Source: Candidatus Omnitrophota bacterium (GTDB lineage Bacteria; Omnitrophota; Gorgyraeia; Zapsychrales; Fredricksoniimonadaceae). Taken from it: DNA of 64,000 nucleotides. Each line of letters starts with the position of its first letter. Position 1 is the first letter of the stretch. The DNA is taken from contig JACQCF010000027.1 of assembly GCA_016201795.1 (NCBI GenBank), forward strand, positions 113,161 through 177,160, in the 5' to 3' direction. The notes under the pieces are model-generated. The model did not search any database, was not told the DNA's origin, and was given only the letters and a program-made list of their open reading frames with translations. The position numbers and the translations under genes are program-made. Of the stretch, positions 10,083-64,000 are shown piece after piece.

Positions 10083-10109
10083 ACGGCGGCCGGTTAATAG
10101 CAGATGGTT

Positions 10110-10155
10110 AATGGTAAATGGTTGAAGAGTTTTTTACTATTAACCATTGACCATT
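10110..10155. repeat. Imperfect 14-bp inverted repeat (AATGGTAAATGGTT / AACCATTGACCATT) between prfA and prmC
   Basis: Arms at 10110-10123 and 10142-10155 (13/14 complementary) with an 18-nt T-rich loop; flanked by reiterated GGTTAAT and ACTATT half-sites. Confidence 0.4.
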
Positions 10156-10171
10156 CACTATTGACTAAACC

Positions 10172-11011: not shown

Positions 11012-11024
11012 GGAGATTTAATTT

Positions 11025-28885: not shown

Positions 28886-28904
28886 AGGTTTGCTTCAAAA
28901 AGCA

Positions 28905-28933
28905 TTGCGGGGCTAACGGTTAGATAATATAAT
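28905..28933 (+). promoter_or_regulatory. sigma70-like promoter for gltA (TTGCGG-17-TATAAT)
   Basis: -35 at 28905-28910, 17-nt spacer, consensus -10 at 28928-28933, 25 nt upstream of the gltA SD. Confidence 0.4.
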
Positions 28934-28958
28934 AAAGGCCATTTGAGAGGGAGTTCTT

Positions 28959-30251
28959 ATGCCAGAGACTGTTCAAATTCGTTTAGACGGTAAAGTGCTG
29001 GAATGCCCGGTGATTGTTTCCACCGAAAACGAAAAAGCCATTGATATTAGCAAATTGCGTTCGACAACGGGCTACATCACCCTGGATCCCGGTTTCGGCA
29101 ACACTGGTTCCTGCCAGAGCGCCATCACGTATCTCGATGGGGATAAAGGCATTTTGCGCTACCGGGGCATTCCCATCGAACAATTGGCCGAGCAGTCCAC
29201 TTTTGTGGAAACCTGTTATCTTCTTATTTACGGCAGGCTCCCCAACAGTAAAGAACTTGATGCTTTTTCAACCGCCTTTAATGAGCACTCCATGATTCAT
29301 GAGGATATGAAAAATTTTTTTAACATGTATCCCTCTTCGACGCATCCGATGGCGGGTCTCTCGGCCATGGTCTGTTCTATGTCCGCTTATTATCCGGAGC
29401 TGATTAAGGAAGACCCCACCGAAGAAGAAATTAACCGCATCGCGGTGCAATTGCTTTCCAAGGTCCGCACCATTTGCGCGTTTTCCTATAAAAAATCCAT
29501 CGGTGATCCCTTAGTAGACCCTCGTCATGACTTGCGTTATGTCCCCAATTTTTTAAACATGATGTTTTCTTCTCCGACCAAGCCGTACAAAATTATTAAT
29601 GAGGTGGTGCGTGCCCTGGAAGTACTATTGATTCTGCATGCCGACCACGAGCAGAACTGTTCCACCTCCACGGTGCGTTTGGTGGGAAGCTCGCATGCCA
29701 ACCTTTATGCTTCCATCTCAGCGGGGATTTGCGCTCTGTGGGGACCGCTGCACGGCGGGGCTAATCAAGCCGTCATTGAAATGCTCGAGATGATTCAAAA
29801 AGACGGTGGTAACGTGGCTAAATACATTGCCAAAGCCAAGGATAAAAATGACCCTTTTCGCCTCATGGGTTTCGGCCATCGGGTGTATAAAAATTTTGAT
29901 CCGCGGGCCAAAATTATCAAACAATGCGCGGATGATCTCTTAAAAAAATTGGGTATTCGTGATCCGCTGTTGGATTTAGCTAAACGCATGGAAGAGGTGG
30001 CGCTCAAAGATGAATATTTCATCAGCCGTAAACTCTATCCGAATGTCGATTTCTACAGCGGCATTATTTATCGGGCTATAGGCATTCCTTTAAATATGTT
30101 TCCGGTCATGTTTGCTATCGGGCGCATGCCGGGTTGGATTGCCCACTGGAAAGAAATGATTGAAGACCCGGCTACTAAAATCGGCCGGCCGTTTCAAATT
30201 TACACGGGTCCCACCAAACACGATTATGTACCTATAGAACAACGCTCATAG
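28959..30251 (+). CDS. gltA: Citrate synthase (type II)
   Basis: 430 aa; GFGHRVYK and catalytic His/Asp context (LHADHEQN, MGFGH) typical of citrate synthase. Confidence 0.9.
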   Translation: MPETVQIRLDGKVLECPVIVSTENEKAIDISKLRSTTGYITLDPGFGNTGSCQSAITYLDGDKGILRYRGIPIEQLAEQSTFVETCYLLIYGRLPNSKELDAFSTAFNEHSMIHEDMKNFFNMYPSSTHPMAGLSAMVCSMSAYYPELIKEDPTEEEINRIAVQLLSKVRTICAFSYKKSIGDPLVDPRHDLRYVPNFLNMMFSSPTKPYKIINEVVRALEVLLILHADHEQNCSTSTVRLVGSSHANLYASISAGICALWGPLHGGANQAVIEMLEMIQKDGGNVAKYIAKAKDKNDPFRLMGFGHRVYKNFDPRAKIIKQCADDLLKKLGIRDPLLDLAKRMEEVALKDEYFISRKLYPNVDFYSGIIYRAIGIPLNMFPVMFAIGRMPGWIAHWKEMIEDPATKIGRPFQIYTGPTKHDYVPIEQRS

Positions 30252-30261
30252 AAAGGTTATT

Positions 30262-31656
30262 GTGATGATTTCTTTTCGTCCTAAAGCAAAATACGACCAA
30301 GAATCCAGTGTTGTTTTATTGACCTCCCAGCAAAAAGACAAACGCCTTAAAAAAGAGCTCGAGAAGGGCGAGGTGTTTCCTGTTTTTGAAGGCCAGAGGC
30401 TTGTGCTTTTTGTCGGCTTAGGCAAAGCTGATCAATTAACGCTGACTGATTTGCGTATTCAAGTACGCAAAGCTTTATTGTCTTCGTATTTAAAGAAAAT
30501 CAAAAATGTGGAACTGATTCCTCACACCAAAGAGGAGGAAGCGGTTAAAGCCGTTATCGAGGGAGTTCTCATCGGCACCTATACCTGGGATAAGTATAAG
30601 AGCAAGGAGAAAGACGATAAAACGGTCAAAGATAAACATATTACGATTGCCGTGGATCCTAAAAAAGAGTATGAACAAACGGTAGTGATTTGCGAAGGTC
30701 TCCAATTAACCCGCGACTTGGTGAATGATAACGCGGATTTGATTACCAGCGAATATTTGGAAAAAATCGTCAGGGATTTAATTAAAGGACACAAAAATAT
30801 TTTTTTAGAAGTTCTCAATAAAAAAGAGCTGAAGGCCAAAGGGCTTTACTTGCATTTGGCGGTCAATCAAGGCAGCACCAAAGAGCCGAAGCTCATCATT
30901 GTTAAATACGCCAGTGGAAAAAAAGATGAAGGCTATACCGCTATCGTTGGCAAAGGTATGACTTTTGACACAGGGGGGATCAATTTAAAGTCGACCAATC
31001 ATATTGAGACGATGAAAATTGATATGAGCGGGGCAGGGGCCGTGTGCGGGATTTTAAAAAATGTTTTAAAGCTGAGGTTAAAAAAGAACCTGCTATTAGT
31101 TTTAAGTATTGCCGAAAACGCCATCGGCTCCAAGGCCTATAAACCTGGCGATGTGATTGTCGGTTATGCCGGCAAATCCGTTGAAATCGGTAATACGGAT
31201 GCCGAAGGCCGTCTGGTCTTAGCCGATGCGTTTAGTTATGTGTTCAAAAACTATAAACCTACCAAGATGATTGACATAGCCACCTTAACAGGCGCTTGTG
31301 TGATCGCTTTAGGGTTCGATTATTCAGGACTTTTCTCTAATAGTGATGAACTAGCTAAAGATCTTTTAGCTTCCGCTGATAAAACCGATGACCGCGCCTG
31401 GCGTCTGCCGATTTATCCGGAAATTAAGGAATACATCAAATCTCCCATCGCGGATTTGAAAAATATCAGTTCTATCCGCGGCGCCGGCGCCTGTACGGCC
31501 GCCGAGTTTTTACATCAGTTTGTGGATGGTACCACCTGGGCGCATTTGGACATCGCCGGCAGCGCCTATGCGGAGTCCCAAGGCCGCCTTTATTATGGTC
31601 ATGGCGCTACCGGTGCGGGGGTTCGTTTGCTGACAGATTATTTATTAAATAACTAG
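30262..31656 (+). CDS. pepA: Leucyl aminopeptidase (M17)
   Basis: 464 aa; NTDAEGRL signature, metal ligands (VGKGMTFDTGG). Confidence 0.85.
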   Translation: MMISFRPKAKYDQESSVVLLTSQQKDKRLKKELEKGEVFPVFEGQRLVLFVGLGKADQLTLTDLRIQVRKALLSSYLKKIKNVELIPHTKEEEAVKAVIEGVLIGTYTWDKYKSKEKDDKTVKDKHITIAVDPKKEYEQTVVICEGLQLTRDLVNDNADLITSEYLEKIVRDLIKGHKNIFLEVLNKKELKAKGLYLHLAVNQGSTKEPKLIIVKYASGKKDEGYTAIVGKGMTFDTGGINLKSTNHIETMKIDMSGAGAVCGILKNVLKLRLKKNLLLVLSIAENAIGSKAYKPGDVIVGYAGKSVEIGNTDAEGRLVLADAFSYVFKNYKPTKMIDIATLTGACVIALGFDYSGLFSNSDELAKDLLASADKTDDRAWRLPIYPEIKEYIKSPIADLKNISSIRGAGACTAAEFLHQFVDGTTWAHLDIAGSAYAESQGRLYYGHGATGAGVRLLTDYLLNN

Positions 31657-31677
31657 GACATCGGGAGATTAATATCC

Positions 31678-33069
<1,392 letters not shown>

Positions 33070-33515: not shown

Positions 33516-34388
33516 ATGCCTTACGATCCTTCCATTGACGATGCGAATCCCGATAAAAAAAGCGTCTTTGGGGTCATTGTGCATTCGTTTTTTGTGATCC
33601 CGTTTTTGCTGGCGATTTTTAGCGTTTTATTGCTGGTGTCGGTGCGTATTTTGACGATGGAAAAACGCGATGTGAATGATTATCTGGAAGATGTCAAAAC
33701 CGGCAGTTTAACCAAACGCTGGCAATCGGCTTTTGAACTCTCACGTATTCTTTCGAATCCTACTATGGTGCCGCATGATGAAAAATTTACCCGTCACATG
33801 ATGATGGCGTTTGAAAAATCCAAAAATGATGATGACCGTGTGCGTCAATACCTGGCTTTGGCCATGGGAAAAAGCGGCATCCAGGATTTTGTGGATGTTT
33901 TGATGAAAGCCGCACCAGAGGAAAAAGACGAAAACTTATATGCAATTATTACGAGCCTTGGTATACTAAAAAACAATAAGGCCATACCTGTTCTTTTAAA
34001 TGTTCTTAATAACGATAACGCACATTTGCGTTTGGTAGCTGTGATTGCATTGGGCAATATCGCTGATGGGCGAACCATTGCACCTTTAAAACACATGCTC
34101 AATGACCCACAGCCCAATGTCAGCTGGGATGCCGCGATTGCTTTAGCCAAAATGGGGAATAAATCAGGGAAAGCTATTATTTTGAATTTGCTTGACCGTC
34201 ATTATTTGGATCAAATTCCGCACCTCAATCCTCAAGAGCAAAGCCGTATCATGATGGTGGCGATTTCAACCACAGCAACCTGGCATGATGCTGATATTAA
34301 AAACATTTTAAAAGAACTTTTTGATAATGATAAAAATATGAACGTTCGTACTTTAGCGCGTCGCGTTTGGGAAGAATCTCATGGCTGA
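33516..34388 (+). CDS. HEAT / PBS-lyase-like repeat membrane-anchored protein
   Basis: 290 aa; N-terminal TM (VIVHSFFVIPFLLAIFSVLLLV) then repeated AL..LG...D.RA...L..AL helical pairs; 8-bp overlap with the Rieske gene. Confidence 0.55.
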   Translation: MPYDPSIDDANPDKKSVFGVIVHSFFVIPFLLAIFSVLLLVSVRILTMEKRDVNDYLEDVKTGSLTKRWQSAFELSRILSNPTMVPHDEKFTRHMMMAFEKSKNDDDRVRQYLALAMGKSGIQDFVDVLMKAAPEEKDENLYAIITSLGILKNNKAIPVLLNVLNNDNAHLRLVAVIALGNIADGRTIAPLKHMLNDPQPNVSWDAAIALAKMGNKSGKAIILNLLDRHYLDQIPHLNPQEQSRIMMVAISTTATWHDADIKNILKELFDNDKNMNVRTLARRVWEESHG

Positions 34389-34926
34389 TCAAAAACTTCC
34401 AGTCGCAGCGAATCAACCTCATTCTTCTAATAATGTATCCGGTGAAATGGACCGGCGATCCTTTATTAAATGGTCGCTCATCGGCTGGGGAGCTTTTGTA
34501 GCGGCCGTTGGCGGTTATGGTTCCATGGTCGTACGCTTTCTTTTTCCCAATGTGCTTTTTGAACCCGTACAGACATTTCGTGTGGGAACACCGGAAGAAT
34601 ATGAGGTGGGTGTTTCCGAGCAGTTTAAGGAAAGATATGGCGTTTGGATCGTACGTGACAGTGAAAAAATTTTTGCGCTTTCGACCGTCTGCACGCATCT
34701 GGGCTGCACACCTAATTATTTAACTGCCGAACAAAAATTTAAATGCCCCTGCCATGGCAGCGGCTTTTATATCAGCGGCATTAATTTTGAAGGTCCAGCA
34801 CCACGTCCTCTGGAGAGGTTTAAAATTTATCTCTCTGATGAAGGGGAAATCATCGTCGATAAAACTAAGAAATTTCAGCAGGAAAAAGGAGAGTGGTCAG
34901 ACTCTGATTCATTTATAACCGTATGA
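34381..34926 (+). CDS. Rieske [2Fe-2S] subunit of a cytochrome bc-type complex (Tat signal)
   Basis: Twin-arginine motif DRRSFIKW; Rieske boxes CTHLGC and CPCHGS. Confidence 0.8.
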
Positions 34927-35720
34927 GCATAGATCCTAACAAATTTTCTTTGTTTGAAAAATTCAAAAATACCCAATTTTACCGCTCCGTTTTTCGTACC
35001 GGCGTGCCGGTGGTCTCCCACCGTCAGCGTATGATGATCATGCTTAACAGTGTTTTTTTGCATTTGCACCCGGTGCGTTTGCCCAAACACGCGGTGAAAG
35101 TTCGTTACACCTGGTGCATGGGAGGCTTATCGTTTTTTATCTTTTTAGTGTTAACCGTTACGGGAATTCTTTTAATGTTTTATTATCGGCCGACCATTGA
35201 ATATGCCTATGGCGATGTCCTCGATTTAAGCCAGCAGGTACCTTTAGGGATTATGCGTGAAATCCACCGTTGGGGTGCGCATTTGATGGTCATTACCGTG
35301 TGGCTGCATATGTTCCGTGTTTTTATGACGGGCTCTTATAAACCGCCGCGAGAATTTAACTGGGTCATTGGTGTGTGCCTCCTGGTTACAACCATGCTTT
35401 TGAGTTTTACCGGTTACCTGCTGCCCTGGGATCAATTAGCTATTTGGGCGATTACCGTGGGTTCTAATATGGCTGGGGCTACACCGTTTTTAGGCATGAA
35501 CGGCCCGGGATCCTCTCTGTTAAGTATAGGGGATGTAAATTTTATCACTTCCGTTTCAGACGCGCGTTTTGCTCTGTTGGGCGGCCGTTTTGTAGGGGAA
35601 GCCGCTCTGCTTCGTTTTTACGTCTTACACTGCATAGGTTTACCGTTTATTATCATGATTTTTATGATTGTCCATTTCTGGCGTGTCAGAAAAGACGGAG
35701 GAATTTCCGGTCCTACTTAA
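34923..35720 (+). CDS. Cytochrome b, N-terminal (b6-like) half
   Basis: 265 aa, 4 TM helices with conserved haem-ligand His context ([20 protein letters not shown]). Confidence 0.8.
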
Positions 35721-35721
35721 T

Positions 35722-36840
35722 ATGATGGACGCTATTAAACATTTCATCAATTTTATCGCGGCCCCCAAAATTCTTTTTAACGTGATTTTGCTGTCTTACC
35801 TGATCATTTTCCCACCGATTAAACCTTTTCAAATTATCCATAATACCCTGGGCGTGGACCGTCTGTGGACCAAAAAAGGGGGGATTTTTATTTTCAGTTT
35901 GATGTTTTTGGCGTTTGGTTTTGGTTTGACCGATCCCAATTTTCGTCTGATTGTTCTTAAACCCGATAATGTGCCGATTGTCGCCTTGTTATTTTTAGTG
36001 GTTTTCTTTTTATGGTTTGCTTTAACCCAGGCCAAAGCCAATGATGAAGCGATCGCCAAGGGTGGCAAACCCAAGGAATGGGCAGAGTCCCGTGAAAAAG
36101 TTTTAGTCTTTCCGGATTTAGTTTATATCGAATTTATCGCTTTAATTGTCGCCGCGGCTTTGCTGGCCGTATGGGCCATTGCCCTGCAGGCACCGCTGGA
36201 ACAGCCAGCCAATCCCACGGTTTCACCGAACCCTTCCAAAGCACCCTGGTATTTCCTGGGTTTACAAGAAATGCTGGTGTATTTTGATCCATGGATTGCG
36301 GGGGTAGTTTTTCCGACGGTGATTATTTTAGGGATGATGTGCATTCCTTATTTGGATAAGAACCGCAAAGGTTTGGGCTATTACACCTATCAAGACCGCA
36401 AAATGGCCATTAATATTTTTATGTTTTTCTGGCTGGTGTTGTGGGTGTTTTTGATTTCCATTGGTACCTTTTTACGCGGTCCCAACTGGAATTTTTTTGG
36501 TCCCTTTGAATACTGGGATCACGATAAATTGGAGGTACTCAATAACGTCAATCTTTCAGAATATGTCTATATGATCGGTTTAAAGCAAGGGCTGCCTTCT
36601 AATATTTGGCTGCGCGAGGCACCGGGTTTTGCGGTGTTGATTGTTTATTTTGGACTGTTGCCGGCGATTTTAGCCAAAACAGCCTTCAAAGACGTGTACC
36701 AGCGTCTAGGCGTTGTGCGTTACAGTATTTTTGTGGTGCTTTTGCTCATGGCTCTGGCATTACCGATTAAGATGTATTTGCGCTGGCTGTTTAACATCAA
36801 ATACATTGTCGCCATACCGGAATACTTTTTTAACATATAA
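35722..36840 (+). CDS. Cytochrome b C-terminal half / subunit-IV-like protein with extra N-terminal helices
   Basis: SKAPWYFLGLQEMLVYF (PEWY-like motif) and multiple TM helices; starts immediately after the stop of the N-terminal half (split b6/SUIV arrangement). Confidence 0.65.
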   Translation: MMDAIKHFINFIAAPKILFNVILLSYLIIFPPIKPFQIIHNTLGVDRLWTKKGGIFIFSLMFLAFGFGLTDPNFRLIVLKPDNVPIVALLFLVVFFLWFALTQAKANDEAIAKGGKPKEWAESREKVLVFPDLVYIEFIALIVAAALLAVWAIALQAPLEQPANPTVSPNPSKAPWYFLGLQEMLVYFDPWIAGVVFPTVIILGMMCIPYLDKNRKGLGYYTYQDRKMAINIFMFFWLVLWVFLISIGTFLRGPNWNFFGPFEYWDHDKLEVLNNVNLSEYVYMIGLKQGLPSNIWLREAPGFAVLIVYFGLLPAILAKTAFKDVYQRLGVVRYSIFVVLLLMALALPIKMYLRWLFNIKYIVAIPEYFFNI

Positions 36841-36843
36841 TTT

Positions 36844-39843
36844 ATGCCTGCTCAACTGCCCCCTGAATCACATTACGATCCAAAAAATTTAGGAAAAATC
36901 TTCGCTCTGGTGGCGGTGGTTTTGTTGCTGTCGATCATCGGCATTTTTGTCAAAGATTATTCCCGTCAGTGGAAAGATTATCAACGTCAGTTTCATGCGT
37001 TAGAGGTTGAAAAGACCAGAATAAAACTAGATGAGCAAGAGAATGATTTAGCCAAGAATAATGAGTATCAGAAACTTCTTAAAGACCTTGAAGAGGCTCA
37101 AAATAAATTACACGAGCAGGATTCAAAGATGAATCTGATCAATGGGCAAATCAAAGCCGTAGATACTGTTAAGAGAATCCACACCAAAGAAGCGCAATTT
37201 GCCAAGGCTCAGTATGGCGCTTTGAAGTATCGTTACGAGAAAGCGCTGCATGAATCCCAGATGGATGCCAGTCAGTTGAAAAATCGATTGGATGATTTGG
37301 TCTTAAAGATTGAAAAATTACGTCTGCTTCTTGAAGCTGACGATGCGGATATGAAAGCTAAAGAAAATATGATGGCGGCCCTTCAAAAAAATTTTAAAGA
37401 ATTGGATAAAAAACGGTCTGCTTTTACCAAAAAAACTGAAGTCATCAAACGCAAATTAAAGAAAACGGACTTAGCGCAAATGAGCGCGGCCAATCAGGCG
37501 GCGGATATGGTGCGGGATTTGCCGTTTATCGAATTGGCTAATCCCAATTATAAAATCCATCAAATTGTGCTCAAAGACATTCCCGAAGATATCAATTTCA
37601 TGAAGACCCAAAGGGTGGACCGCTGCACCACCTGCCATTTAGGTATTGATAATCCCGACTTTCAAAACGCGCCCCAGCCGTTTACTACCCATCCACATTT
37701 AGAACTTTTTATGGATAAAAATTCGCCGCATCCTCTGGAAGAGTTTGGTTGCACCACCTGCCATATGGGACGCGGGCGGGGTACTGATTTCATTTCTGCG
37801 GCCCATACGCCCCGCGATGCAGAGCAGAAAAAAGAGTGGGAGAACAAATACAGCTGGTATGAACTGCATCACTGGGATCAGCCCATGCTGGCAGGGCCTT
37901 TAACCGAGGCTGGATGCTTTAAATGCCATGAAAACCAGACAGTCATTAAGGGAGCTGAAAAGTTAAACTTAGGGCTTAATTTGATTGAACGCGCCGACTG
38001 TTATAATTGCCATACGATTACAAAATATCAAGATTGGCCAAAATCCGGACCCAATTTGGAATTTATAGCCTCTAAGTCCACCAGAGAATGGGCTTATCAT
38101 TGGATCGATGACCCCAAATCCATTCGTTTTAACACTTGGATGCCGTCCTTCTTTCATCAATCCAATAACAACGACGCTGAATCGACCAAACGGGGTCAGC
38201 AGGAAGTACATGCCATTGTTGAGTATCTGTTTGCTAATAGCAAACCGTTTAGAGTAGATGCCATTCAATCTACCAGCCCCAAGTTGGGGGATGAAAAAAT
38301 TGGTAAAGAGCTGGTGGCTTCTTTAGGATGTTTGGCCTGTCATCAAGTGGAAAATCAAAAGACTAAGACGCCCCGCACACGGGATTCTTTACACCGCGAG
38401 TTTGGGCCTAATTTAATCGGTTTGGGCAGCAAAACCACCAAAGAATGGCTGTATCAGTGGCTTAAAGATCCTAGCCAATATCATCCTGGTGGCCGCATGC
38501 CTAATATGCGCTTATCCGATAAGGAGACTGCCGATATCGCGGCTTATCTTATTCAAGATAAATCATCACTGGTTAATAAACCTATTCCACCGGTGGATAA
38601 TAAAGTTCTTAATGCTATTGTCATGGATTTCTTAAAGAAATCTTCAACACTGAACGAATCTCAAGATCAGGTTAAAAGTATGAACCAGGAAGACAAATTG
38701 GTTTTTGCCGGTAAACGTTTGATTAGAGAATACGGTTGTTATGGTTGCCATCAAATTCCCGGCTTTGAAAATGAGAAGCCTATTGGTACGGAGTTAAGCG
38801 AAGAAGGATCCAAAGACCTGGAACGCTTGGATTTTGGTTTTATTAATATTGAGCATAGCAAACAGGCCTGGTTTAAACAGAAGCTGATGAATCCGCGTAT
38901 TTTTGATAAACAGAAGGTCAAGCAGCCGTTGGATAAACTCAAAATGCCTAATTTTAATTTCACCAGCGATGAGGCTGATGCTATCACCACCGCTTTGATG
39001 GGCTTTGTCAAAGATCGTCCTGGTCATGCGAAGATGGCGGATCAGAGTATGAAAACCGCTTTTATTAATGAGGGCGCCAAAACCATCCGTCAGCTTAATT
39101 GCCAGGGCTGTCATATGATTGATGGCGAGGGTGAGGCCATTCAAAGTACCGTTACCGATTGGCTGGTGGCGTACCAGGCTAGAGACCTTAATGATGCCCA
39201 GGCCGTCACTAAAAGTTTTTCACCGCCCAATCTTGTCGGTGAAGGACAAAAGGTGCAGGCCCAGTGGCTGTTTGAATTCTTGCATGGGCCCACACCCATT
39301 CGTCCTTGGCTTCATGTGCGTATGCCCACCTATAGTTTTCATGCTTCACAAATCAATTCCATTATCAAATATTTTAATTATTTGGATGATCAGGAATTTC
39401 CCTTTACTGATATTTATCATCCTAATTTGGCCAAAGAAGACCTCGAAGCAGCGGAAAAATTATTCTCTAAAGATTATTTTGGCTGCGCCTCCTGCCATAT
39501 CGTAGGCCATCAAATGCCCGGCGGATCCGCCGACAGCTGGGCTCCGGATTTTGCCCTGGCGGCCAAACGTTTAAAACCAGAGTGGATTGTCAAATGGATT
39601 ACCAATCCGCAGGATTTGTTGGTCGGCACAAAAATGCCGACGTATTATGATCCCAATAACTTTAATGCCTCAGCCCCGAGTAATATTTTAGGAGGAGATG
39701 CCAAACGTCAAATTCAAATTTTGCGTGATTATTTATTGACGATTTCTGAACATCCACCGCAGGTTAAGCCTGCTCCAGTAAAAGTGGAAGATAAAACTAA
39801 CCAGGCACCAGAAGACCACACACAAACCAATCAGAGCAAGTAG
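36844..39843 (+). CDS. Membrane-anchored octahaem c-type cytochrome with long N-terminal coiled coil
   Basis: 999 aa; N-terminal TM, ~170-residue K/E/Q-rich heptad region, then eight CxxCH motifs: CTTCH, CTTCH, CFKCH, CYNCH, CLACH, CYGCH, CQGCH, CASCH. Confidence 0.75.
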   Translation: MPAQLPPESHYDPKNLGKIFALVAVVLLLSIIGIFVKDYSRQWKDYQRQFHALEVEKTRIKLDEQENDLAKNNEYQKLLKDLEEAQNKLHEQDSKMNLINGQIKAVDTVKRIHTKEAQFAKAQYGALKYRYEKALHESQMDASQLKNRLDDLVLKIEKLRLLLEADDADMKAKENMMAALQKNFKELDKKRSAFTKKTEVIKRKLKKTDLAQMSAANQAADMVRDLPFIELANPNYKIHQIVLKDIPEDINFMKTQRVDRCTTCHLGIDNPDFQNAPQPFTTHPHLELFMDKNSPHPLEEFGCTTCHMGRGRGTDFISAAHTPRDAEQKKEWENKYSWYELHHWDQPMLAGPLTEAGCFKCHENQTVIKGAEKLNLGLNLIERADCYNCHTITKYQDWPKSGPNLEFIASKSTREWAYHWIDDPKSIRFNTWMPSFFHQSNNNDAESTKRGQQEVHAIVEYLFANSKPFRVDAIQSTSPKLGDEKIGKELVASLGCLACHQVENQKTKTPRTRDSLHREFGPNLIGLGSKTTKEWLYQWLKDPSQYHPGGRMPNMRLSDKETADIAAYLIQDKSSLVNKPIPPVDNKVLNAIVMDFLKKSSTLNESQDQVKSMNQEDKLVFAGKRLIREYGCYGCHQIPGFENEKPIGTELSEEGSKDLERLDFGFINIEHSKQAWFKQKLMNPRIFDKQKVKQPLDKLKMPNFNFTSDEADAITTALMGFVKDRPGHAKMADQSMKTAFINEGAKTIRQLNCQGCHMIDGEGEAIQSTVTDWLVAYQARDLNDAQAVTKSFSPPNLVGEGQKVQAQWLFEFLHGPTPIRPWLHVRMPTYSFHASQINSIIKYFNYLDDQEFPFTDIYHPNLAKEDLEAAEKLFSKDYFGCASCHIVGHQMPGGSADSWAPDFALAAKRLKPEWIVKWITNPQDLLVGTKMPTYYDPNNFNASAPSNILGGDAKRQIQILRDYLLTISEHPPQVKPAPVKVEDKTNQAPEDHTQTNQSK

Positions 39844-42692: not shown

Positions 42693-43007
42693 ATGAATCG
42701 AAAATGTCCACGTACCCTGGATAAACCGCTTCTATTGTTTGGACTAGAGGGGGAGGATGTTGCCCTATTAGCGCTAGTAGGGGGAGTAGGCAGTATTCTT
42801 TTTGGTCCTATTATTCCAGGGACATGCGCCATTGTCGGCTGGATTGTCTTAATGCAGTTTAAAAAGGATAAACCATCAGGGTATTTATTACACTGGCTTT
42901 ACGCCCAAGGGATTGATTTCCCTGGACTTATTCCACCCATCAAAAAAGTTGAGCGATACGGTATTTATGGAACAACCCCTTATGTCAAAAAATTCGCCGT
43001 TTGTTGA
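42693..43007 (+). CDS. TraL-like (F-type) / VirB3-class small T4SS membrane protein
   Basis: ~104 aa; P.TLD...L.FGLEGED...ALVGG hydrophobic core and downstream WLY motif resemble the TraL family; RBS AAGGAAAG. Confidence 0.45.
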   Translation: MNRKCPRTLDKPLLLFGLEGEDVALLALVGGVGSILFGPIIPGTCAIVGWIVLMQFKKDKPSGYLLHWLYAQGIDFPGLIPPIKKVERYGIYGTTPYVKKFAVC

Positions 43008-43572
43008 ACGATGGTCGAGGGCAGAGGTTGTTAATGCCAAATTAGGAGTCACGCTCATGGTTATAGGATTGATATGTCTGAGCCTAACGACCACCTTAAT
43101 CTATATCATCACCAAAGCACAGCCAATTTACTATGTACCGGGCGCCTCGTCTGCAGGTATAGCTTATGCTCAAACCACCTCTAAAACGACTGTAGCGATT
43201 TTCACCTCTTCCTGGGTATTGAACTGGTCGAATTTCACCCCTGCCACCGTCGAGGATGTGTACAAACATGCCGAACGGTTCATGTCTCCGCATTTATTAG
43301 CCCAAACAAGGACAAGGCTCAAAAAAGACCTTGAGCAGGTTAAAAATAACCATATGTCTTCCTTATTTTCTTTAAATCAGGAGCCTTTGGTGCAGGAAGA
43401 TCAACAGGGGTTTAATGTCACCATCCAGGGAGATAAAGGCATTTATATGGGCAAAGAAGAGATTAAGCTGCAAAAAATGATTTATCACCTACATTTAAGG
43501 TTATCGCCAGCAACGGATTGGAACCCGTATGGCTTGATTATTGAGGATATTTCTCAGGAGGTGGTGGGATGA
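42982..43572 (+). CDS. TraE / VirB8-like bitopic protein
   Basis: Short cytoplasmic N-terminus, one TM (LGVTLMVIGLICLSLTTTLIYII) and ~150-aa periplasmic domain; position after TraL-like matches the F-type order. Start uncertain because it overlaps the TraL-like 3' end. Confidence 0.4.
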   Translation: MSKNSPFVERWSRAEVVNAKLGVTLMVIGLICLSLTTTLIYIITKAQPIYYVPGASSAGIAYAQTTSKTTVAIFTSSWVLNWSNFTPATVEDVYKHAERFMSPHLLAQTRTRLKKDLEQVKNNHMSSLFSLNQEPLVQEDQQGFNVTIQGDKGIYMGKEEIKLQKMIYHLHLRLSPATDWNPYGLIIEDISQEVVG

Positions 43573-44252
43573 AAAGGATCATTTTTCTTATATTACTGTT
43601 AGCAGGGCTTTCTTCATGCGTTTTGCCAGCTAGCGCTTCTAATTTCAAGGACCAGGGTAAGCCAATAGATATTCAAGTGGAAGTGGGCAAAGTTACGGAA
43701 GTGGTTTTTCCAGCCAAGGTGGCTAAGGTGGTTAAAGGCGGGGCTGTCGATTCGGTGCTTGTCGAGGTGTTGGATAATTCTGTTTATATGTTGCCCAAAA
43801 CAGATGACCCCTCGGACATTTTTGTGATGACGACTTCGGGCAACAGCTACCCGTTAAATCTTCATATCAGTAGGGAACACGATATTAAAGTGCAGATAGG
43901 ATCTTTCAATCATCAGCCTAAGTTTTCTGCAGGTGTTTATGGGGATGTGATGGATTTGATGAAAGATTTACTTTTACAGAAAGAGCCGGCAGGGGCTACC
44001 GCTTTGCCGGGGGGCAATCAGGTGCTTTTGGCTAATCGACAAATTCAATTAAAAGTTGATAAGGCTTATGAGCTGGCAGGTTGGAAAGCCTATGTGTTAA
44101 CTGCTCGGAATCTTATGAACAATGCCGTCATTATTCCTATTGAACAAATGACGTTGCCTAATCTTTTGGCGGTTAGTTCTGATCAAGATATGTTAGCCGC
44201 CAAAGGCCAGCAGGGCGACGCCGCCAAAGTGTATGTGATTATGAGTAAATAA
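43569..44252 (+). CDS. TraK / VirB9-like secretin-N-domain protein
   Basis: Signal/lipobox LLLLAGLSSC; beta-rich N-domain with a DIFVMTTSGNSYPLNL-type strand pattern as in the VirB9/TraK/CagX N-terminus. Confidence 0.5.
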   Translation: MKRIIFLILLLAGLSSCVLPASASNFKDQGKPIDIQVEVGKVTEVVFPAKVAKVVKGGAVDSVLVEVLDNSVYMLPKTDDPSDIFVMTTSGNSYPLNLHISREHDIKVQIGSFNHQPKFSAGVYGDVMDLMKDLLLQKEPAGATALPGGNQVLLANRQIQLKVDKAYELAGWKAYVLTARNLMNNAVIIPIEQMTLPNLLAVSSDQDMLAAKGQQGDAAKVYVIMSK

Positions 44253-44253
44253 A

Positions 44254-45384
44254 ATGAATTTACAACCATTGCAAGATTTTATTAAGAAACAGCCTTTGGT
44301 CGTTGGGATAGGAGGCTTATTAGTTTTAGCGGTATTAGGATTATGGATGATGCATCAACCATTTAAGAAAGCTTCTTCAATAGCATCCGGGGCCAATGCT
44401 TCTAAAGATATTGGAATTTCCATCGGTGGAGCGGATCAACAGGCGTACATGGCCCGTCTGGAAAAAAATTATTATGACTTTGAAGAGCGGGTTAAAGATG
44501 TGGAAACTCAGCTCAAGAGTATGCAATCCACGGCGCAAGAGCTTAAAAATTCTCAAAAGGATATTGCGCAGACGGTTCTTAAACTGGATCAGGGTTTAGG
44601 AGTCAAGATGGACCAGCACCTTGAGGAATTCAAAACCAGCTTGGAGTCTGCTCAAAACAATGCTCCAGAGGAGTCTCCAGAGAAGGATGTGGAGTTATCG
44701 GTGGCAGATATCAATCCAACAGCCCAGGAGGATTGGGTGTATTTGCCCATCGGCAGTTTTTGCCAGGGAACTTTACTGACCGGCGTATATGCGGCGGCGG
44801 ATGCCAGTAATCCTTTACCGGTTTTAATTTCCTTAGATGAGGCTTTTTACGGGCCTAATAAAACCCGCATTCCACTTAAAGGGGCATTTGTGTTAGGTAA
44901 AGCCTACGGTGATTTAACCTCTCAGAGGGCGCTTATGCAAATTGTGGCCGTATCCGCTGTTTTACCCAACGGCCATGCGTTTGAAAATGAGCAGGATTTA
45001 GGCTATGTCACCGATGAGTTTGGGGAGCTTGGTATCAAAGGTCAGGTGGTTTATAACACGGGCCGCCAGCTGGCGATTTCTTTGTTGGGGGGATTTGTCT
45101 CTGGAGGGTCTCAGGCTGTTGCGGACAGTCAGGTGACCACGCATAAAACTTTGCAGGGAGATACGAGTAAAGACGTGACGGGTAGTCCCTCTAAAAATTT
45201 ACTGTTTTCAGGGCTGGCTCAAAGCGCGGGTAAGTTAGCCGAATTTTATCAAAAACAGGCTGAGGACCTGGTGCCTGCGGTGCATATTAAAAACGGTGCT
45301 AAAGTATTTTTCATTGTCCAAAAAGGAGTGACGATCAATGGGTTGGCTAAGAGCAATTTTAATCATCAGCGTTTTATGGATTAA
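44254..45384 (+). CDS. TraB / VirB10 (TrbI domain) protein
   Basis: 376 aa; N-terminal TM, coiled-coil linker, C-terminal TrbI-like domain (LPIGSFCQGTLLTGV...PVLISLDEAFYGPNKTRIPLKGAFVLGKAYGDLTSQRALMQI...LPNGHAF). Confidence 0.7.
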   Translation: MNLQPLQDFIKKQPLVVGIGGLLVLAVLGLWMMHQPFKKASSIASGANASKDIGISIGGADQQAYMARLEKNYYDFEERVKDVETQLKSMQSTAQELKNSQKDIAQTVLKLDQGLGVKMDQHLEEFKTSLESAQNNAPEESPEKDVELSVADINPTAQEDWVYLPIGSFCQGTLLTGVYAAADASNPLPVLISLDEAFYGPNKTRIPLKGAFVLGKAYGDLTSQRALMQIVAVSAVLPNGHAFENEQDLGYVTDEFGELGIKGQVVYNTGRQLAISLLGGFVSGGSQAVADSQVTTHKTLQGDTSKDVTGSPSKNLLFSGLAQSAGKLAEFYQKQAEDLVPAVHIKNGAKVFFIVQKGVTINGLAKSNFNHQRFMD

Positions 45385-58706: not shown

Positions 58707-60551
58707 ATGAGCATGTTCGATAAGAATATCAGCCAAGAGAAGTTAAAGTCCCTAGAATTTGCCGAAGCCGCCCGTGAACAGGAATGGACATCCCCCAGTT
58801 ACGCCCTTCAGTTATTCCACGGAGCCCTTGACTTTAATCTTATTTCCCCTTTTCCTGAGCAAAGCGCCTCAGAGAAGAAAATAGGGGATGAGTATTTAGT
58901 TAAGATAGAAAAATTCTTGCGGGAAAACCTCGATCCTGATGAAGTTGACCGTACGGGTATCATTCCTGATGCCGTGTATAAAGGGTTAGCCGAAATGGGG
59001 GCCTTTGCTCTTAAAATTCCCGAAGAATACGATGGTATGGGCTTTAGCCAGTACAATTACAACCGTATCATGCATTTGGTTTCCAGTTATTGTGGTTCAA
59101 CGGCAGTGCTTCTGTCCGCCCATCAAAGTATCGGCGTGCCTCAGCCGTTAAAACTGTTCGGAACGCCCGAGCAGAAAAAAAAATATTTGCCCCTGTTTGC
59201 CAAAGGGGCTATATCGGCGTTTGCTTTGACAGAACCGACGGCAGGTTCTGATCCACGGCAAATGCTGACCACTGCCACTCCTATTGAAGACGGTCAATAT
59301 TTTCTACTTAATGGGGAAAAACTCTGGTGTACCAATGGTTTGATCGCGGATGTCATGGTGGTGATGGCGGTTACGCCTCCTAAAATTGTTAAGGGTAAAG
59401 AAATGAAACAAATTACCGCCTTTATTGTGGAAAATAGTTGGCCGGGTATTGAAAAGGCGCATCGTTGTCAATTTATGGGATTGCATGGTATTCAAAATGG
59501 CTTCATGCGTTTTCATAATGTGAAAGTTCCTAAGGAAAACATTATTCTTGGCGAGGGGGAGGGGCTGAAGCTGGCGCTGATGACTTTAAATACCGGCCGT
59601 TTGACCTTGCCGGGTGGTTCCGCCGGTATTGGTAAATGGTGTTTGTATGTGGCCCGTCAATGGGCCGCCAAACGCCAGCAATGGGGGGCTCCTATCGGTG
59701 AACATGAAGCGATTGCTTTAAAACTTTCGTATATCGCCAGCCACAGCTTTGCGATGGATGCCGTTACCTGGCTGGCTTCAGCCATGGCTGATGATAAACA
59801 CCGCGACATTCGTCTGGAAGCGGCCATTGCGAAATATTTTTGTACGGAAGTTTCCTGGAAAATCGTGGATGAGACTTTACAGATTCGCGGCGGCTGCGGT
59901 TATGAAACTTCTTTATCTTTACGACAACGCGGGGTGGATTATTGGCCGGTGGAACGCGTCTTGCGTGATGTACGCATCAATCGTATTATCGAGGGAACCA
60001 GTGAAATTATGCATTTATTTATCGCCCGCGAAGCATTGGATCCTCATTTATCTAAAATTAAGCCGTTGTTGAGTGGTCGCACGCCCATCGGTGCCAAAAT
60101 TGCCGCCGCGTTTAATATGTCTGTCTTTTATGCGGTATGGTATCCCAAACTTTGGTTTCCTTCTTTACCAAAAACTCATCTCGTTCCTGTATTAAACGAG
60201 CACATGCATTATGTTCAATTAGCCAGCAAACGCTTGGCGCGCCACACATTTCATCAAATGATCAAATACCAGCAGAAGCTGGAGAGTAAACAAAGCATCC
60301 TCAACCGCATCGTGGACATAGGCACAGACCTTTTTATTATTTCTGCCGTATGTTCGTATACCGCCATGCTCAAAAAGAAAGGCCAGGCTAACGCGATGGA
60401 TTTAGCCGACAGTTTCTGTCACCAAGCCCGTCAGCGCATCGAGGCCGCCTTCAAAGAAAGCTGTTGCAATGACGACCGGGCCAATTTAAAAATCGCCAAA
60501 AATGTTTTGGCGGGCGAGTTTGAGTGGATGGAAAACGAGATCATCAAATGA
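58707..60551 (+). CDS. Acyl-CoA dehydrogenase family protein (long form with C-terminal extension)
   Basis: 614 aa; FALTEPTAGSDP and the ACAD middle and C-terminal domains, plus a ~180-aa extra C-terminal region. Confidence 0.8.
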   Translation: MSMFDKNISQEKLKSLEFAEAAREQEWTSPSYALQLFHGALDFNLISPFPEQSASEKKIGDEYLVKIEKFLRENLDPDEVDRTGIIPDAVYKGLAEMGAFALKIPEEYDGMGFSQYNYNRIMHLVSSYCGSTAVLLSAHQSIGVPQPLKLFGTPEQKKKYLPLFAKGAISAFALTEPTAGSDPRQMLTTATPIEDGQYFLLNGEKLWCTNGLIADVMVVMAVTPPKIVKGKEMKQITAFIVENSWPGIEKAHRCQFMGLHGIQNGFMRFHNVKVPKENIILGEGEGLKLALMTLNTGRLTLPGGSAGIGKWCLYVARQWAAKRQQWGAPIGEHEAIALKLSYIASHSFAMDAVTWLASAMADDKHRDIRLEAAIAKYFCTEVSWKIVDETLQIRGGCGYETSLSLRQRGVDYWPVERVLRDVRINRIIEGTSEIMHLFIAREALDPHLSKIKPLLSGRTPIGAKIAAAFNMSVFYAVWYPKLWFPSLPKTHLVPVLNEHMHYVQLASKRLARHTFHQMIKYQQKLESKQSILNRIVDIGTDLFIISAVCSYTAMLKKKGQANAMDLADSFCHQARQRIEAAFKESCCNDDRANLKIAKNVLAGEFEWMENEIIK

Positions 60552-62584
60552 CCGCACTGCCGTCATTCTTTAATAAGCTTGCCGTTATCAAACAAACCCC
60601 CATCTTCGAGGGGTTGAATTGGTTTGAACTGAATCGCATTGCCAGACGGGTGGAATTGGTTGAATTTAACAAAGGCGATGTGATTTGCCGTCAGGGAGAT
60701 CCGGCGGACGCATTTTATGCCCTGATCTCTGGCCGGGTTTATTCCTACACCTTAAACTCTGCCGGACAAAAAGAAGAAGTGGATTTTATTTTGCGCGGGA
60801 TGCATTTCGGGATCATTTCCACGCTTACCGGTGAAAACCATTCCCACACCTATGAAGCCATCAATGATTCGGCGGTGATCAAAATCAAAAAGGATGATTT
60901 TGCGCATCTATTGAAAGTCACTCCCAAGTTAGCGGTTGCTTTAAGCCAGAGCCTTTCCCATAGAATTAGAAGTCATGTCACAGGAGCCCGGGACACCCAG
61001 GAAAGCACCATTATTGCCGTCTATGCATCGGTGAAAGGTTCCGGTAGTTCCACCTATGCGGCTAATTTAGCGTTGACCCTGAAGGCTCAAACGGATAAAA
61101 AAGTGTTGTTGTTAAGACTTTCTTCGGATCTTGGTGACTCCTTGGTGAATTTAGCAGATATTGTTTATGATCATGACAAAATCATTGAATCGATTATCAA
61201 GAATAAATTACCCATCGATGTCCTGGGGGTCAAATTCGATGCCGCGGATCACGCCGTTTTAGACAGAATCAGTCCATTTGTCAGTGCTCCGGTCAATGAC
61301 TATAGCTACATTGTTTTTGATTTACCCAATCAAATGGATGATGTGGTCATGAAAACATTAGTTCAAAGCGATCTGATACACTTGGTGACTGTTGAACGTG
61401 AATATGATTTGGAATTGACACGTCATGTGATCGACCGGCTTTCCGAACAGTTAAAAGACAGATTCCAAACCGAAAAAGTCCAAATCATTATCAGCGGGGT
61501 TCAGGATGATAGCGGTTTAAAACCGGACGAGATCAAAAAAATTCTCAATTACGATGTCTTTTTAAGACTGCCGCATTTAAAGCCCCAAGAGTTTCAAAAT
61601 GAAAACGTCTATGACGGATTTTTTATGGTCAAAGTTGATCCTGCCAGTGAATATGCTTTTTTTCTAAAGCGTTTAAGCCGACAAATTAGCGGATCTTTGA
61701 TTGGTTTAGTATTAGGAGGGGGAGCAGCCTTAGGGATGGCCCATATTGGCGTACTGCGCGTCTTGGAGCAAGAAGGTATCCCTATTGACATCGTGGTGGG
61801 TAGCAGTATGGGAGCTTTGATGGCCAGTCTCTGGGCTAGCGGCTATACGGCTGATGATATAGAAAAATTTGGCCGTGAATTTGGAAAAAAAACGTCCGTC
61901 TGGAAATTATTTGATTTAAACTGGCATTTGTTTTCCGGTCCGGTGGGGGGGGAGGCTATCAAACGCTGGCTGAGAACCAAAATAGGAGATAAAACTTTTC
62001 ATGATGCCAAAATTCTATTAAAAATAACCGCCTATGATCTTTATCATCGGCAAGAAATCATTATCGATCAAGGGCCTTTGGTAGAAGCTGTACGTAAAAG
62101 TGTCGCTATCCCTGGCGTTATCAAACCTGTGATGTACAAAGATCAAATGATTATCGATGGAGGCGTTTTAAATCCTTTACCTACCAATGTGTTGGTGCAT
62201 ATGGGAATTAAAAAAATTATTGCCGTTAACGTTTTGCAGTCTCCAGCGGATGTATTTTATGGAGCTGAATTAGAAAAAGAAAGGTTGCATCAACAGTACC
62301 ATGTCCCTTTTACCAAACATCCCTTCCAATATGTGAAATTCCGCTTTATTCGTTTTTGGGCGAGTGTCTTTACACCCAATGTGGCGGATATCATTGTACG
62401 CACCCTGCAAGCCACCGAATATGTGCTTGCCGAACAAAGTAGCAAACAGGCGGATGTGATTATTCACCCTGATCTTAAAGGGATCAACTGGTTTGAATTA
62501 TACGAAGTCAATCAGCTTATCAAACGTGGTCAAGAGGCCACCCTCAAACATCTGCCGTCTATTAAAGCTCTGGTCAAACGATAA
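60548..62584 (+). CDS. Cyclic nucleotide-binding domain + patatin-like phospholipase
   Basis: N-terminal cNMP-binding fold (FNKGDVICRQGDPADAFYALISGRV); C-terminal patatin motifs GGGAALGMAHIGV (oxyanion), GSSMG (GxSxG), DGGV; ATGA overlap with the upstream gene. Confidence 0.75.
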   Translation: MTALPSFFNKLAVIKQTPIFEGLNWFELNRIARRVELVEFNKGDVICRQGDPADAFYALISGRVYSYTLNSAGQKEEVDFILRGMHFGIISTLTGENHSHTYEAINDSAVIKIKKDDFAHLLKVTPKLAVALSQSLSHRIRSHVTGARDTQESTIIAVYASVKGSGSSTYAANLALTLKAQTDKKVLLLRLSSDLGDSLVNLADIVYDHDKIIESIIKNKLPIDVLGVKFDAADHAVLDRISPFVSAPVNDYSYIVFDLPNQMDDVVMKTLVQSDLIHLVTVEREYDLELTRHVIDRLSEQLKDRFQTEKVQIIISGVQDDSGLKPDEIKKILNYDVFLRLPHLKPQEFQNENVYDGFFMVKVDPASEYAFFLKRLSRQISGSLIGLVLGGGAALGMAHIGVLRVLEQEGIPIDIVVGSSMGALMASLWASGYTADDIEKFGREFGKKTSVWKLFDLNWHLFSGPVGGEAIKRWLRTKIGDKTFHDAKILLKITAYDLYHRQEIIIDQGPLVEAVRKSVAIPGVIKPVMYKDQMIIDGGVLNPLPTNVLVHMGIKKIIAVNVLQSPADVFYGAELEKERLHQQYHVPFTKHPFQYVKFRFIRFWASVFTPNVADIIVRTLQATEYVLAEQSSKQADVIIHPDLKGINWFELYEVNQLIKRGQEATLKHLPSIKALVKR

Positions 62585-62606: not shown

Positions 62607-64000
62607 ATGTTTTCGTCTATCAAAATAGGTTCCCGTCAAAGCCGTTTGGCCAAAATTCAGGTGCAAGAGGTCTTATCGATGGCAAGGGAGGTGCCCTTAC
62701 CCTATGAATTGATTACTTTTACGACCCGGGGCGATGTGGATCAAATAACTTCTTTAACCTCCAAGCCTGCCGATGATTTTTTCACGAATACCTTGGATGA
62801 AGCGCTTCTGAACAAACAAATTGACGTAGCGGTGCATAGCGCCAAAGACCTGCCGCAAAAACTGTGCCAGGGATTGAAGATTTTCGCCTTAACCAAAGCT
62901 TTAGACGAGACAGACTGCTTGGTATCGAACTATTCTTTAGAAAATTTACCTCAACGGGCTAAAGTTGGCACCAGCAGCCTGTTGCGGGGACAGATGTTCA
63001 AAGCCTTAAGGCCGGATGTAGCTCTCATTGATATTCGAGGCCCTATTGAGGAACGTTTGGATTTGCTGCCTAAGAGGCAGGTGGATGGTTTGATAGTAGC
63101 TACCTGCGCACTCAAACGCCTTGGTTTAGAAAAACATATTAAAAGTATTTTACCCTGGGAAGCTATGCCTTTGCAGGGACAGCTGGCTGTTGTTGGCCGC
63201 CAGGGGGATGGGGAATTAGAAAAAATTTTTGAACCTATGGACGTGCGCCGTCATTATGGTCAGGTATTTTTGACAGGAGCAGGCCCAGGAGATCCTGGAT
63301 TAATTACACTCAAAGCCATTGAAGTTTTAAAAAATGCGGATTGTGTATTCTATGATTATTTAGTGGATGCCTCGCTGTTAAGATATGCTCCAATGGCGGA
63401 ATATATTTATGTAGGCAAACGAAAAGGAGTGCATACGCTGCCTCAAGCGGAGCTTTCACGCCAGCTCAAAGACAAAGCCATGCAGGGCAAAAAAGTGGTA
63501 CGTTTAAAAGGGGGAGACCCTCTTATTTTTGGCCGAGGCGCGGATGAGATTACCTATTTGCGTTCTTATCATATTCCGGTAGAAGTGATCCCTGGTATTA
63601 GCTCAGCCACCGGTATTCCGTCGCTGTTGGGAATACCTTTGACGGCCAGGGGAGTTTCTTCTTCAGTAGCTTTCCTCAGCGGCCATGGGGAATCTGAAGA
63701 CAACGTTCATCCCCAAGAGATCATTATTCCTCAAGCCGATACGATCGTGTTTCTGATGGGATTAACCAAACTTGGTTCAATTGTGCATTCTTTGCTTAAA
63801 GCCGGCTGGAGTGAAACCAAACCCATCATGATCATTGCTAACGGCACAAAGCCTAATCAGACCATTGTACATGGAACTTTAGCTGATATTGAAACACTGG
63901 CATTGTCGCACTCTTTAACAGCGCCTGCCTTGATTGTGGCAGGGGAAACGGTCAATTTCTATCAGAAAAGCCCTCAAAAAATCTTTTTGCACTGCGGCAC
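62607..64000 (+). CDS. Fusion of hydroxymethylbilane synthase N-terminal domains (HemC domains 1-2) to uroporphyrinogen-III C-methyltransferase (SUMT); partial, runs off the window
   Basis: Not in the ORF track because no stop falls inside the window. N-term KIGSRQSRLAKIQ, VHSAKDLP, KVGTSSLLR, ALKRLGL are HemC signatures; from ~aa 215 VFLTGAGPGDPGLITLKA...VVRLKGGDPLIFGRG...IPGISSA are SUMT (CobA/CysG) signatures. Confidence 0.7.
   Translation, partial: MFSSIKIGSRQSRLAKIQVQEVLSMAREVPLPYELITFTTRGDVDQITSLTSKPADDFFTNTLDEALLNKQIDVAVHSAKDLPQKLCQGLKIFALTKALDETDCLVSNYSLENLPQRAKVGTSSLLRGQMFKALRPDVALIDIRGPIEERLDLLPKRQVDGLIVATCALKRLGLEKHIKSILPWEAMPLQGQLAVVGRQGDGELEKIFEPMDVRRHYGQVFLTGAGPGDPGLITLKAIEVLKNADCVFYDYLVDASLLRYAPMAEYIYVGKRKGVHTLPQAELSRQLKDKAMQGKKVVRLKGGDPLIFGRGADEITYLRSYHIPVEVIPGISSATGIPSLLGIPLTARGVSSSVAFLSGHGESEDNVHPQEIIIPQADTIVFLMGLTKLGSIVHSLLKAGWSETKPIMIIANGTKPNQTIVHGTLADIETLALSHSLTAPALIVAGETVNFYQKSPQKIFLHCG

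Follow-up and report, generated by a model that had tools for sequence, protein, structure and literature searches.

A HemC-CobA-HemD fusion of Omnitrophota belongs to a clade of short, probable hydroxymethylbilane synthases without the cofactor-bearing domain 3

Hydroxymethylbilane synthase (HMBS, HemC) is the textbook enzyme that builds its product on a self-made, covalent dipyrromethane primer held by its domain 3. Whether a HemC module that has lost this domain can still be an enzyme is the question raised by an open reading frame (ORF) at positions 62607-64000 (+ strand) of a stretch of contig JACQCF010000027.1 from a Candidatus Omnitrophota bacterium; the whole 64,000-nucleotide stretch is called the window below. 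A preliminary description, made from the letters of the window, held that the ORF encodes HemC domains 1 and 2 without domain 3, that its frame runs directly into uroporphyrinogen-III C-methyltransferase (SUMT, CobA) and that the gene is cut by the window edge. Herein, we followed the gene beyond the window, searched for the missing domain in the gene and its neighbourhood, and compared the module, designated HemC', with its relatives.

Translation of the ORF gave 464 codons from the ATG to the end of the window with no stop codon, and the gene is indeed truncated by the edge, its full product being 675 amino acids (aa) long. The features discussed below, with residues numbered along this protein, are as follows.

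62607..64000 (+): gene for a HemC'(domains 1-2)-SUMT-UroS fusion (UroS, uroporphyrinogen-III synthase), first 464 of 675 codons; no stop, cut by the window end, 100% identical to the complete protein P0001
62619..63248 (+): HemC' module (domains 1-2) of the short hydroxymethylbilane synthase type, aa 5-214, from PF01379, NF002202, TIGR00212 and superposition of an AlphaFold2 (AF2) model
62847..62849 (+): codon GAC of Asp81, the catalytic Asp84 of Escherichia coli HemC by alignment
62982..62984 (+): codon TTG of Leu126, at the position of E. coli Arg131 by alignment
63105..63107 (+): codon TGC of Cys167, at the position of E. coli Ala172 by alignment
63222..63263 (+): HemC'/SUMT junction, aa 206-219, ...IFEPMDVRRHYGQ..., placed by conserved residues where domain 3 of canonical HemC begins
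63258..63959 (+): SUMT/CobA domain, aa 218-451, with the GAGPGD loop for S-adenosylmethionine (SAM), from TIGR01469, PF00590 and PDB matches
63960..64000 (+): start of the linker toward the HemD (UroS) domain, which itself lies outside the window, from PF02602 on P0001

Pfam found two domains in the window translation and no other: PF01379 (Porphobil_deam) at aa 5-205 with E 2.3e-51, covering profile positions 1-206 of 207, and PF00590 (TP_methylase) at aa 220-428 with E 2.4e-48. PF01379 is the dipyrromethane cofactor binding domain of HemC and corresponds to structural domains 1 and 2. At E-values of about 1e-50 a chance match can be dismissed, and the HemC match is real. It is also confined to the first two domains, as had been described. 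The NCBIfam model TIGR00212 (hemC) scored 178.6 bits over profile positions 1-217 of 293 only, and the matches to HemC structures (Bacillus megaterium 4mlq, Vibrio cholerae 5h6o, E. coli 1pda/1ah5 and human) stopped at chain residue 200-220, the end of domain 1. The AF2 model (pLDDT 86.9, pTM 0.67) had a HemC-like domain 1-2 fold, which Foldseek superposed on 1ah5 and 1pda with a root-mean-square deviation of 1.8-2.5 A over 218-225 columns (1.8 A over 218 for 1ah5). The methyltransferase half was complete, TIGR01469 (SUMT) covering aa 218-451 with 257.8 bits against a cutoff of 185 (profile positions 1-236 of 238). It matched the PDB structures of CysG, NirE and SUMT at E 1e-45 to 1e-53, and its GAGPGD loop at aa 224-229, a GxGxGD motif, was invariant in an alignment of 44 fusions.

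The rest of the gene was recovered from P0001, a 675-aa protein of a Candidatus Omnitrophica metagenome-assembled genome (200,936-bp contig) that is 100% identical over the 464 aa. In addition to PF01379 at aa 5-205 and PF00590 at aa 220-428, P0001 carries PF02602 (HEM4, HemD) at aa 474-673 with E 4.7e-33 and 114.7 bits against a cutoff of 27.5. The gene product is a HemC'(no domain 3)-CobA-HemD triple fusion. The preliminary description had set a HemC-CobA fusion against the common HemD-CobA form; the fusion was confirmed, but it is not a double one, since CobA-HemD is itself part of it, and hemD, which was to be sought elsewhere in the genome, lies in the same polypeptide. At least 120 homologues, all from Omnitrophota, had the same three Pfam domains; the full-length ones measured 644-717 aa and the rest were fragments. 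They came from NCBI, JGI, ENA and Logan assemblies, with identities of 58-87%. The HemC'-CobA-HemD architecture is thus common in Omnitrophota, with more than 100 proteins, and under-annotated. Current automatic annotation calls the 675-aa protein only 'uroporphyrinogen-III C-methyltransferase' or 'methyltransferase/synthase', and therefore pathway reconstructions of Omnitrophota will wrongly score hemC as missing.

Where, then, is domain 3? The spacing between HemC' and SUMT is at most about 10 residues, so that a domain of about 90 residues cannot fit, and in the AF2 model strand β1 of SUMT begins only about 4 residues past the last HemC' helix; SUMT is therefore tethered where domain 3 normally begins. 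The full-length P0001 gave no match to PF03900 (HemC domain 3) even at E<=1, and the segment after SUMT is HemD instead of anything like domain 3. With E. coli HemC as the query (313/313 residues identical to 1ah5_A), tblastn matched the window in domains 1 and 2 alone, and no domain-3 match was found in the window or in five related loci (L001-L005). A motif scan of the same sequences found no GGCxxP. We further built a domain-3 hidden Markov model (HMM) from the E. coli, V. cholerae and B. megaterium sequences (positive control, E 1e-22). It had no match among 393 clade proteins or in 233 kb of DNA, made up of the window plus ten related loci and translated in all six frames, and no domain-3-like ORF was found with it within about 10 kb in six contexts. 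The alignment column of E. coli Cys242, to which the dipyrromethane is attached, was a gap in 147 of 147 clade sequences. These results agree with the earlier statements that the attachment cysteine is gone and that no other frame has room for the domain. Neither domain 3 nor the cofactor cysteine is present in cis or in the neighbourhood.

An artefact, in which a frameshift, an indel or a chimeric assembly deleted domain 3 and joined hemC to cobA, was weighed against the same data. The architecture is unusual, and nothing else spoke for this explanation. The same junction and lengths recurred in more than 100 proteins from independent assemblies at 58-87% identity, the junction residues D212, R214 and G218 were invariant in the 44 aligned fusions, and no frame had domain-3 coding potential. 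We regard an artefact as ruled out and give it a negligible probability; the indel that the preliminary description had allowed for is not there.

To place HemC' among its relatives, aa 1-216 were used as the query of an exhaustive HMMER search of 1.84 billion cluster representatives, which returned 262 matches below 1e-30. Among the best 150 of the 262, no canonical HemC of about 310 aa was present, and all 150 were without domain 3. The matches fell into several classes. Stand-alone proteins of 212-245 aa numbered 24 and triple fusions about 54; another group, of about 47, had lengths of 400-470 aa, and both members scanned with Pfam were HemC'-HemD fusions from Omnitrophota. Also present were fusions from Planctomycetota, of the HemA-HemC' and SirC-HemA-HemC' types, and one HemC'-sulfite-reductase-like-TusA protein. 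In P0235, P0266, P0225 and P0136, some of them labelled Planctomycetota, the order was SirC(NAD_binding_7)-HemA(GluTR)-HemC' or HemA-HemC'; HemC' stands at the extreme C-terminus of these proteins, and therefore nothing can follow it as domain 3. The 841-aa P0236 consists of HemC', a nitrite/sulfite-reductase 4Fe-4S/sirohaem domain and a C-terminal TusA, and thus joins a tetrapyrrole-synthesis module to a sirohaem-using enzyme.

A second search, seeded with a stand-alone member, returned proteins of 214-241 aa with PF01379 only. The stand-alone short HemC proteins came from Chlamydiales, Waddliaceae, Chlamydia sp. and Aerophobetes, were named hydroxymethylbilane synthase, and in several cases lay on megabase contigs. 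One such locus (L006) reads rnc-radA-hemC'-hemD-sodA-accD-dut-ptsN, a gene order that we take to be typical of chlamydiae, and its 216-aa hemC' overlaps a separate hemD of 215 aa. In this locus, at 10001-11295, it is the stop of the short hemC' that the HemD gene (PF02602) overlaps. As hemD is often reported missing from chlamydial haem pathways, this neighbour of hemC' may be an overlooked chlamydial UroS.

The clade proteins scored best against NF002202, a hydroxymethylbilane synthase model of 241 positions that ends at the end of domain 2/1; the stand-alone chlamydial-type proteins reached 200-245 bits. The loss of domain 3 is thus a clade trait that annotation pipelines have silently accommodated, and no accident of this gene. 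The preliminary description had treated the missing domain as a peculiarity of the fusion, which did not hold: the lack of domain 3 defines a large clade of short HemC proteins that stand alone in Chlamydiae and elsewhere are fused to HemD, HemA or SirC-HemA. This clade-wide loss of the cofactor-bearing domain, extending well beyond the present locus, is the main interest of the finding.

Has the module kept its active site? Residue conservation was scored in 44 triple fusions and 147 members of the wider clade. The equivalents of E. coli R11, S13, Q19, F62, K83, D84, S128, S129, R132, R149, R155, A170, R176, Q198 and G199 were invariant or at least 97% conserved in both sets. Asp81, the equivalent of Asp84, was kept in 44/44 fusions and in 144/147 clade members. 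This (near-)invariance indicates that the catalytic cleft of HemC' is under strong purifying selection. The C-terminal D-x-R motif (I-D-x-R) also occurred in the wider clade (122/147 and 107/147). Three departures from the canonical enzyme were seen, one of them the lack of a conserved cysteine, taken up below. The lid loop reads DDFFT in place of GKGLFVKE, and the site of E. coli Arg131, a residue which we take to be needed in dipyrromethane cofactor assembly, is occupied by Leu126, with Leu in at least 90% of the fusions. Arg131 was kept in 21/24 stand-alone proteins and in 32/46 HemC'-HemD proteins but in only 7/54 triple fusions.

These observations bear on an alternative in which HemC' would be a non-catalytic module that binds porphobilinogen or bilane for channelling or regulation, while hydroxymethylbilane is supplied by a canonical hemC at another place in the genome. 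A module lacking domain 3 and the cofactor cysteine would suit such a role, as would the replacement of Arg131 in the triple-fusion class and the ability of apo-HMBS to bind preuroporphyrinogen. Against it stands the (near-)invariance of the general-acid Asp and of every substrate-binding Arg, Ser and Gln across 147 diverged proteins. Nor does it sit well with the fusion-hemB-hemL operon described below, which contains no other hemC, or with the name hydroxymethylbilane synthase that the short form bears in small chlamydial genomes; C. trachomatis presumably has a single hemC. A dead domain is also hard to reconcile with a short form that recurs fused to HemD, HemA, SirC-HemA and a sirohaem-type reductase and, as a stand-alone protein, beside chlamydial hemD. 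We therefore consider a purely binding module unlikely.

The cysteines of the module were examined in the same alignments. No cysteine was conserved clade-wide, and none was invariant anywhere in the family of the 675-aa protein; four stand-alone proteins and one HemC'-HemD protein had no cysteine at all. The sole well-conserved cysteine of HemC' in the triple-fusion class was Cys167, which occurred in 39/44 fusions and 49/51 triple-class representatives; Ala takes its place in the rest of the clade. The 5/44 fusions that lack it had Ala or Ser, and one fusion (P0018) had no cysteine in its HemC' module. Four of these five carried a cysteine at position 159 instead. The sites of E. coli residues 131 and 172 covaried strongly, with 60 R/A, 58 nonR/C, 10 R/C and 8 nonR/A pairs (18 mixed), although this pattern may simply reflect phylogeny.

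Could the cofactor then still be covalent, attached to the cysteine of a domain-3-like protein acting in trans or, in the triple fusions, to a residue in a new place such as Cys167? Cys167 lies two residues past the equivalent of E. coli Ala170, which presumably contacts the cofactor, and this cysteine, so frequent in the triple class, appears where Arg131 is lost. However, it is not invariant, Ala occupies its site in the rest of the clade and in canonical enzymes, one module does without any cysteine, and so do several stand-alone members. No domain-3-like ORF lay within the roughly 10 kb covered in six contexts, and the covariation may be a matter of descent only. Relocated or trans attachment thus appears improbable to us.

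The genomic context was assessed in related contigs, and the genes downstream of the fusion in the window genome are inferred from relatives that are 58-73% identical. In all five contigs examined (L001, L005, L008, L009 and L010), the fusion is followed by hemB (PF00490) and hemL (PF00202, Aminotran_3), and the three genes are tightly spaced or overlapping regardless of the genes upstream. L001, L005 and L010 also share the upstream synteny of the window, with leuCD, ilvD, aroC, a short-chain dehydrogenase/reductase, an acyl-CoA dehydrogenase and a patatin gene. No second hemC or PF03900 gene was found within 10 kb in the related contigs examined.

Taken together, the operon context and the unvarying catalytic residues speak for a catalytic HemC'. 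On balance, HemC' is probably a working porphobilinogen deaminase, and the whole polypeptide would turn porphobilinogen into precorrin-2. This reading is preferred because the pathway needs such a step, hemB making porphobilinogen and HemD requiring hydroxymethylbilane, because fusions of the short module to other enzymes of this pathway arose repeatedly and independently, and because annotation gives the name HMBS to the short form in reduced chlamydial genomes. The haem-dependent proteins encoded in the window (see below) also fit. With hemB and hemL, the operon would lead from glutamate-1-semialdehyde through 5-aminolaevulinate and porphobilinogen to precorrin-2, from which the routes to sirohaem, sirohaem-dependent haem or corrinoids start.

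In such a deaminase, porphobilinogen would be bound and deaminated in the usual cleft by the equivalents of Asp84, Arg11, Arg132, Arg149, Arg155, Lys83 and Gln19/198. The bilane would be built with no dipyrromethane attached in cis through a thioether, and its starting point would be either a primer bound non-covalently or the first porphobilinogen itself; if tetramerisation needs no primer, the cleft would only have to hold four rings. The product could then be handed to the tethered UroS and SUMT, a few residues from the usual site of domain 3. The fusion itself most likely arose when a short hemC' joined an adjacent cobA-hemD in an operon of the hemC-D-B-L type.

Several points weigh against a working deaminase. 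To our knowledge, an HMBS without domain 3 has no biochemical precedent, and canonical HMBS is held to depend on the dipyrromethane linked to the domain-3 cysteine. The triple-fusion class has lost Arg131, the cofactor-assembly residue, which could equally signal a decaying deaminase function. Elsewhere in the genome there may be a canonical hemC or a separate protein with domain 3, either of which would change the interpretation; with a canonical hemC, the finding shrinks to an ordinary gene fusion. The cofactor-free mechanism, finally, is one that we infer.

Extending the preferred reading to the whole clade, we tentatively suggest that short HemC' in the triple fusions, HemC'-HemD, HemA-HemC' and the chlamydial stand-alone proteins could form a mechanistically distinct HMBS class that dispenses with the covalent, Cys-linked dipyrromethane, until now considered universal for this enzyme. 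Such enzymes would use a non-covalent primer or none, and a tethered or adjacent UroS would possibly replace domain 3. As a sub-variant, the triple fusions might have re-invented covalent attachment at Cys167. What is observed is that a large natural clade keeps the catalytic cleft without domain 3 or a conserved cysteine, and that it is found in operons for haem and sirohaem in Omnitrophota, Planctomycetota and Chlamydiae. Should these short proteins prove active, HMBS can do without the covalent cofactor, and both the chemistry and the counting of chain length would need a second solution.

How does the protein compare with known systems? It shares with canonical HemC (E. coli 1PDA/1AH5, human HMBS) the two-lobed, periplasmic-binding-protein-like fold of domains 1 and 2, about 40% sequence identity to the E. 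coli enzyme, the catalytic Asp, and nearly all Arg, Ser, Gln and Lys residues of the cleft. Unlike canonical HemC, it is without domain 3 and Cys242, has Leu for Arg131 and the DDFFT lid loop, and is fused to two enzymes. The chlamydial-type short HMBS (NF002202 / PRK01066) is the best-scoring HemC model, with the same truncation point, the C-terminal I-D-x-R motif and members about 44% identical to the query module. The present protein scored 190-191 bits over profile positions 20-234 of 241, below the equivalog cutoff of 251, and is therefore a relative of that family, not an equivalog. The chlamydial proteins are stand-alone, lie beside a separate hemD and keep Arg131, a residue lost from the present, fused protein.

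The C-terminal 460 residues have the SUMT-then-UroS order of CobA-HemD bifunctional enzymes such as that of Desulfovibrio vulgaris, to which the present protein adds an N-terminal HemC' module. The D. vulgaris UroS/SUMT bifunctional enzyme has been linked to a sirohaem-dependent haem route (PMC3004389). Against NF005524 (PRK07168), a profile of 474 positions, the score was 181.5 bits with a cutoff of 603 and the SUMT half alone aligned, so that the order is the same but the family is not. An HmbS-UroS fusion was reported in Leptospira interrogans (Guegan et al. 2003, cited in PMC8698207). Like that protein, the present one unites HMBS and the next-step enzyme UroS in one polypeptide. The Leptospira protein, as we understand it, has a complete HemC including domain 3 and no SUMT in between. 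The present fusion combines the HMBS-UroS idea of Leptospira with the UroS/SUMT idea of Desulfovibrio, but with a truncated HMBS; CysG is another trifunctional relative in function. Because domain 3 and Cys242 of canonical HemC are absent and the equivalog cutoffs of NF002202 and NF005524 were missed, we class the protein as a new variant and not as a member of any of these families. No description of a HemC-CobA-HemD fusion or of an HMBS without domain 3 was found in the full-text literature searched, which is an incomplete collection.

A haem demand of the organism is apparent from the window itself. A respiratory gene cluster at 34381-39843 on the + strand consists of the following genes.

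34381-34926 (+): Rieske 2Fe-2S protein
34923-35720 (+): cytochrome b
35668-36840 (+): 390-aa ORF with no Pfam match
36844-39843 (+): 999-aa cytochrome c with eight CxxCH motifs (octahaem)

Judging from these cytochromes, the organism needs haem b and haem c.

Other genes of the window and of its relatives were noted in passing. The gene immediately upstream of the fusion (60524-62584, + strand) encodes a 686-aa protein with cyclic-nucleotide-monophosphate-binding and patatin phospholipase domains, and shares 28 nt with the end of the acyl-CoA dehydrogenase gene. Upstream of the haem operon, the same pair of acyl-CoA dehydrogenase and patatin genes is kept in L001, L005, L009 and L010. Contig CAZOXU010000002.1 (L010/L011) carries a 70-71% identical fusion in the same synteny; its submitters' label, 'uncultured Planctomycetales bacterium', is inconsistent with the Omnitrophica/Omnitrophota assignment of the closest proteins. 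A stretch at 25695-33069 (+ strand) holds tricarboxylic acid cycle genes, with aconitase (901 aa), a NUDIX protein, citrate synthase, an M17 leucyl aminopeptidase and class II fumarase. A further stretch at 42913-45384 (+ strand), with the cytochrome cluster on one side and metabolic genes on the other, encodes TraE-like (PF05309) and TrbI-like (PF03743) proteins and, between them, an unannotated ORF of 227 aa; it may be what is left of a conjugation or type IV secretion module. Among the ORFs of at least 150 aa, 49 of 52 lie on the + strand, and the three on the - strand overlap longer + strand ORFs. All plausible genes of the window (1-64000) are thus on the + strand, an unusually long co-directional stretch of 64 kb.

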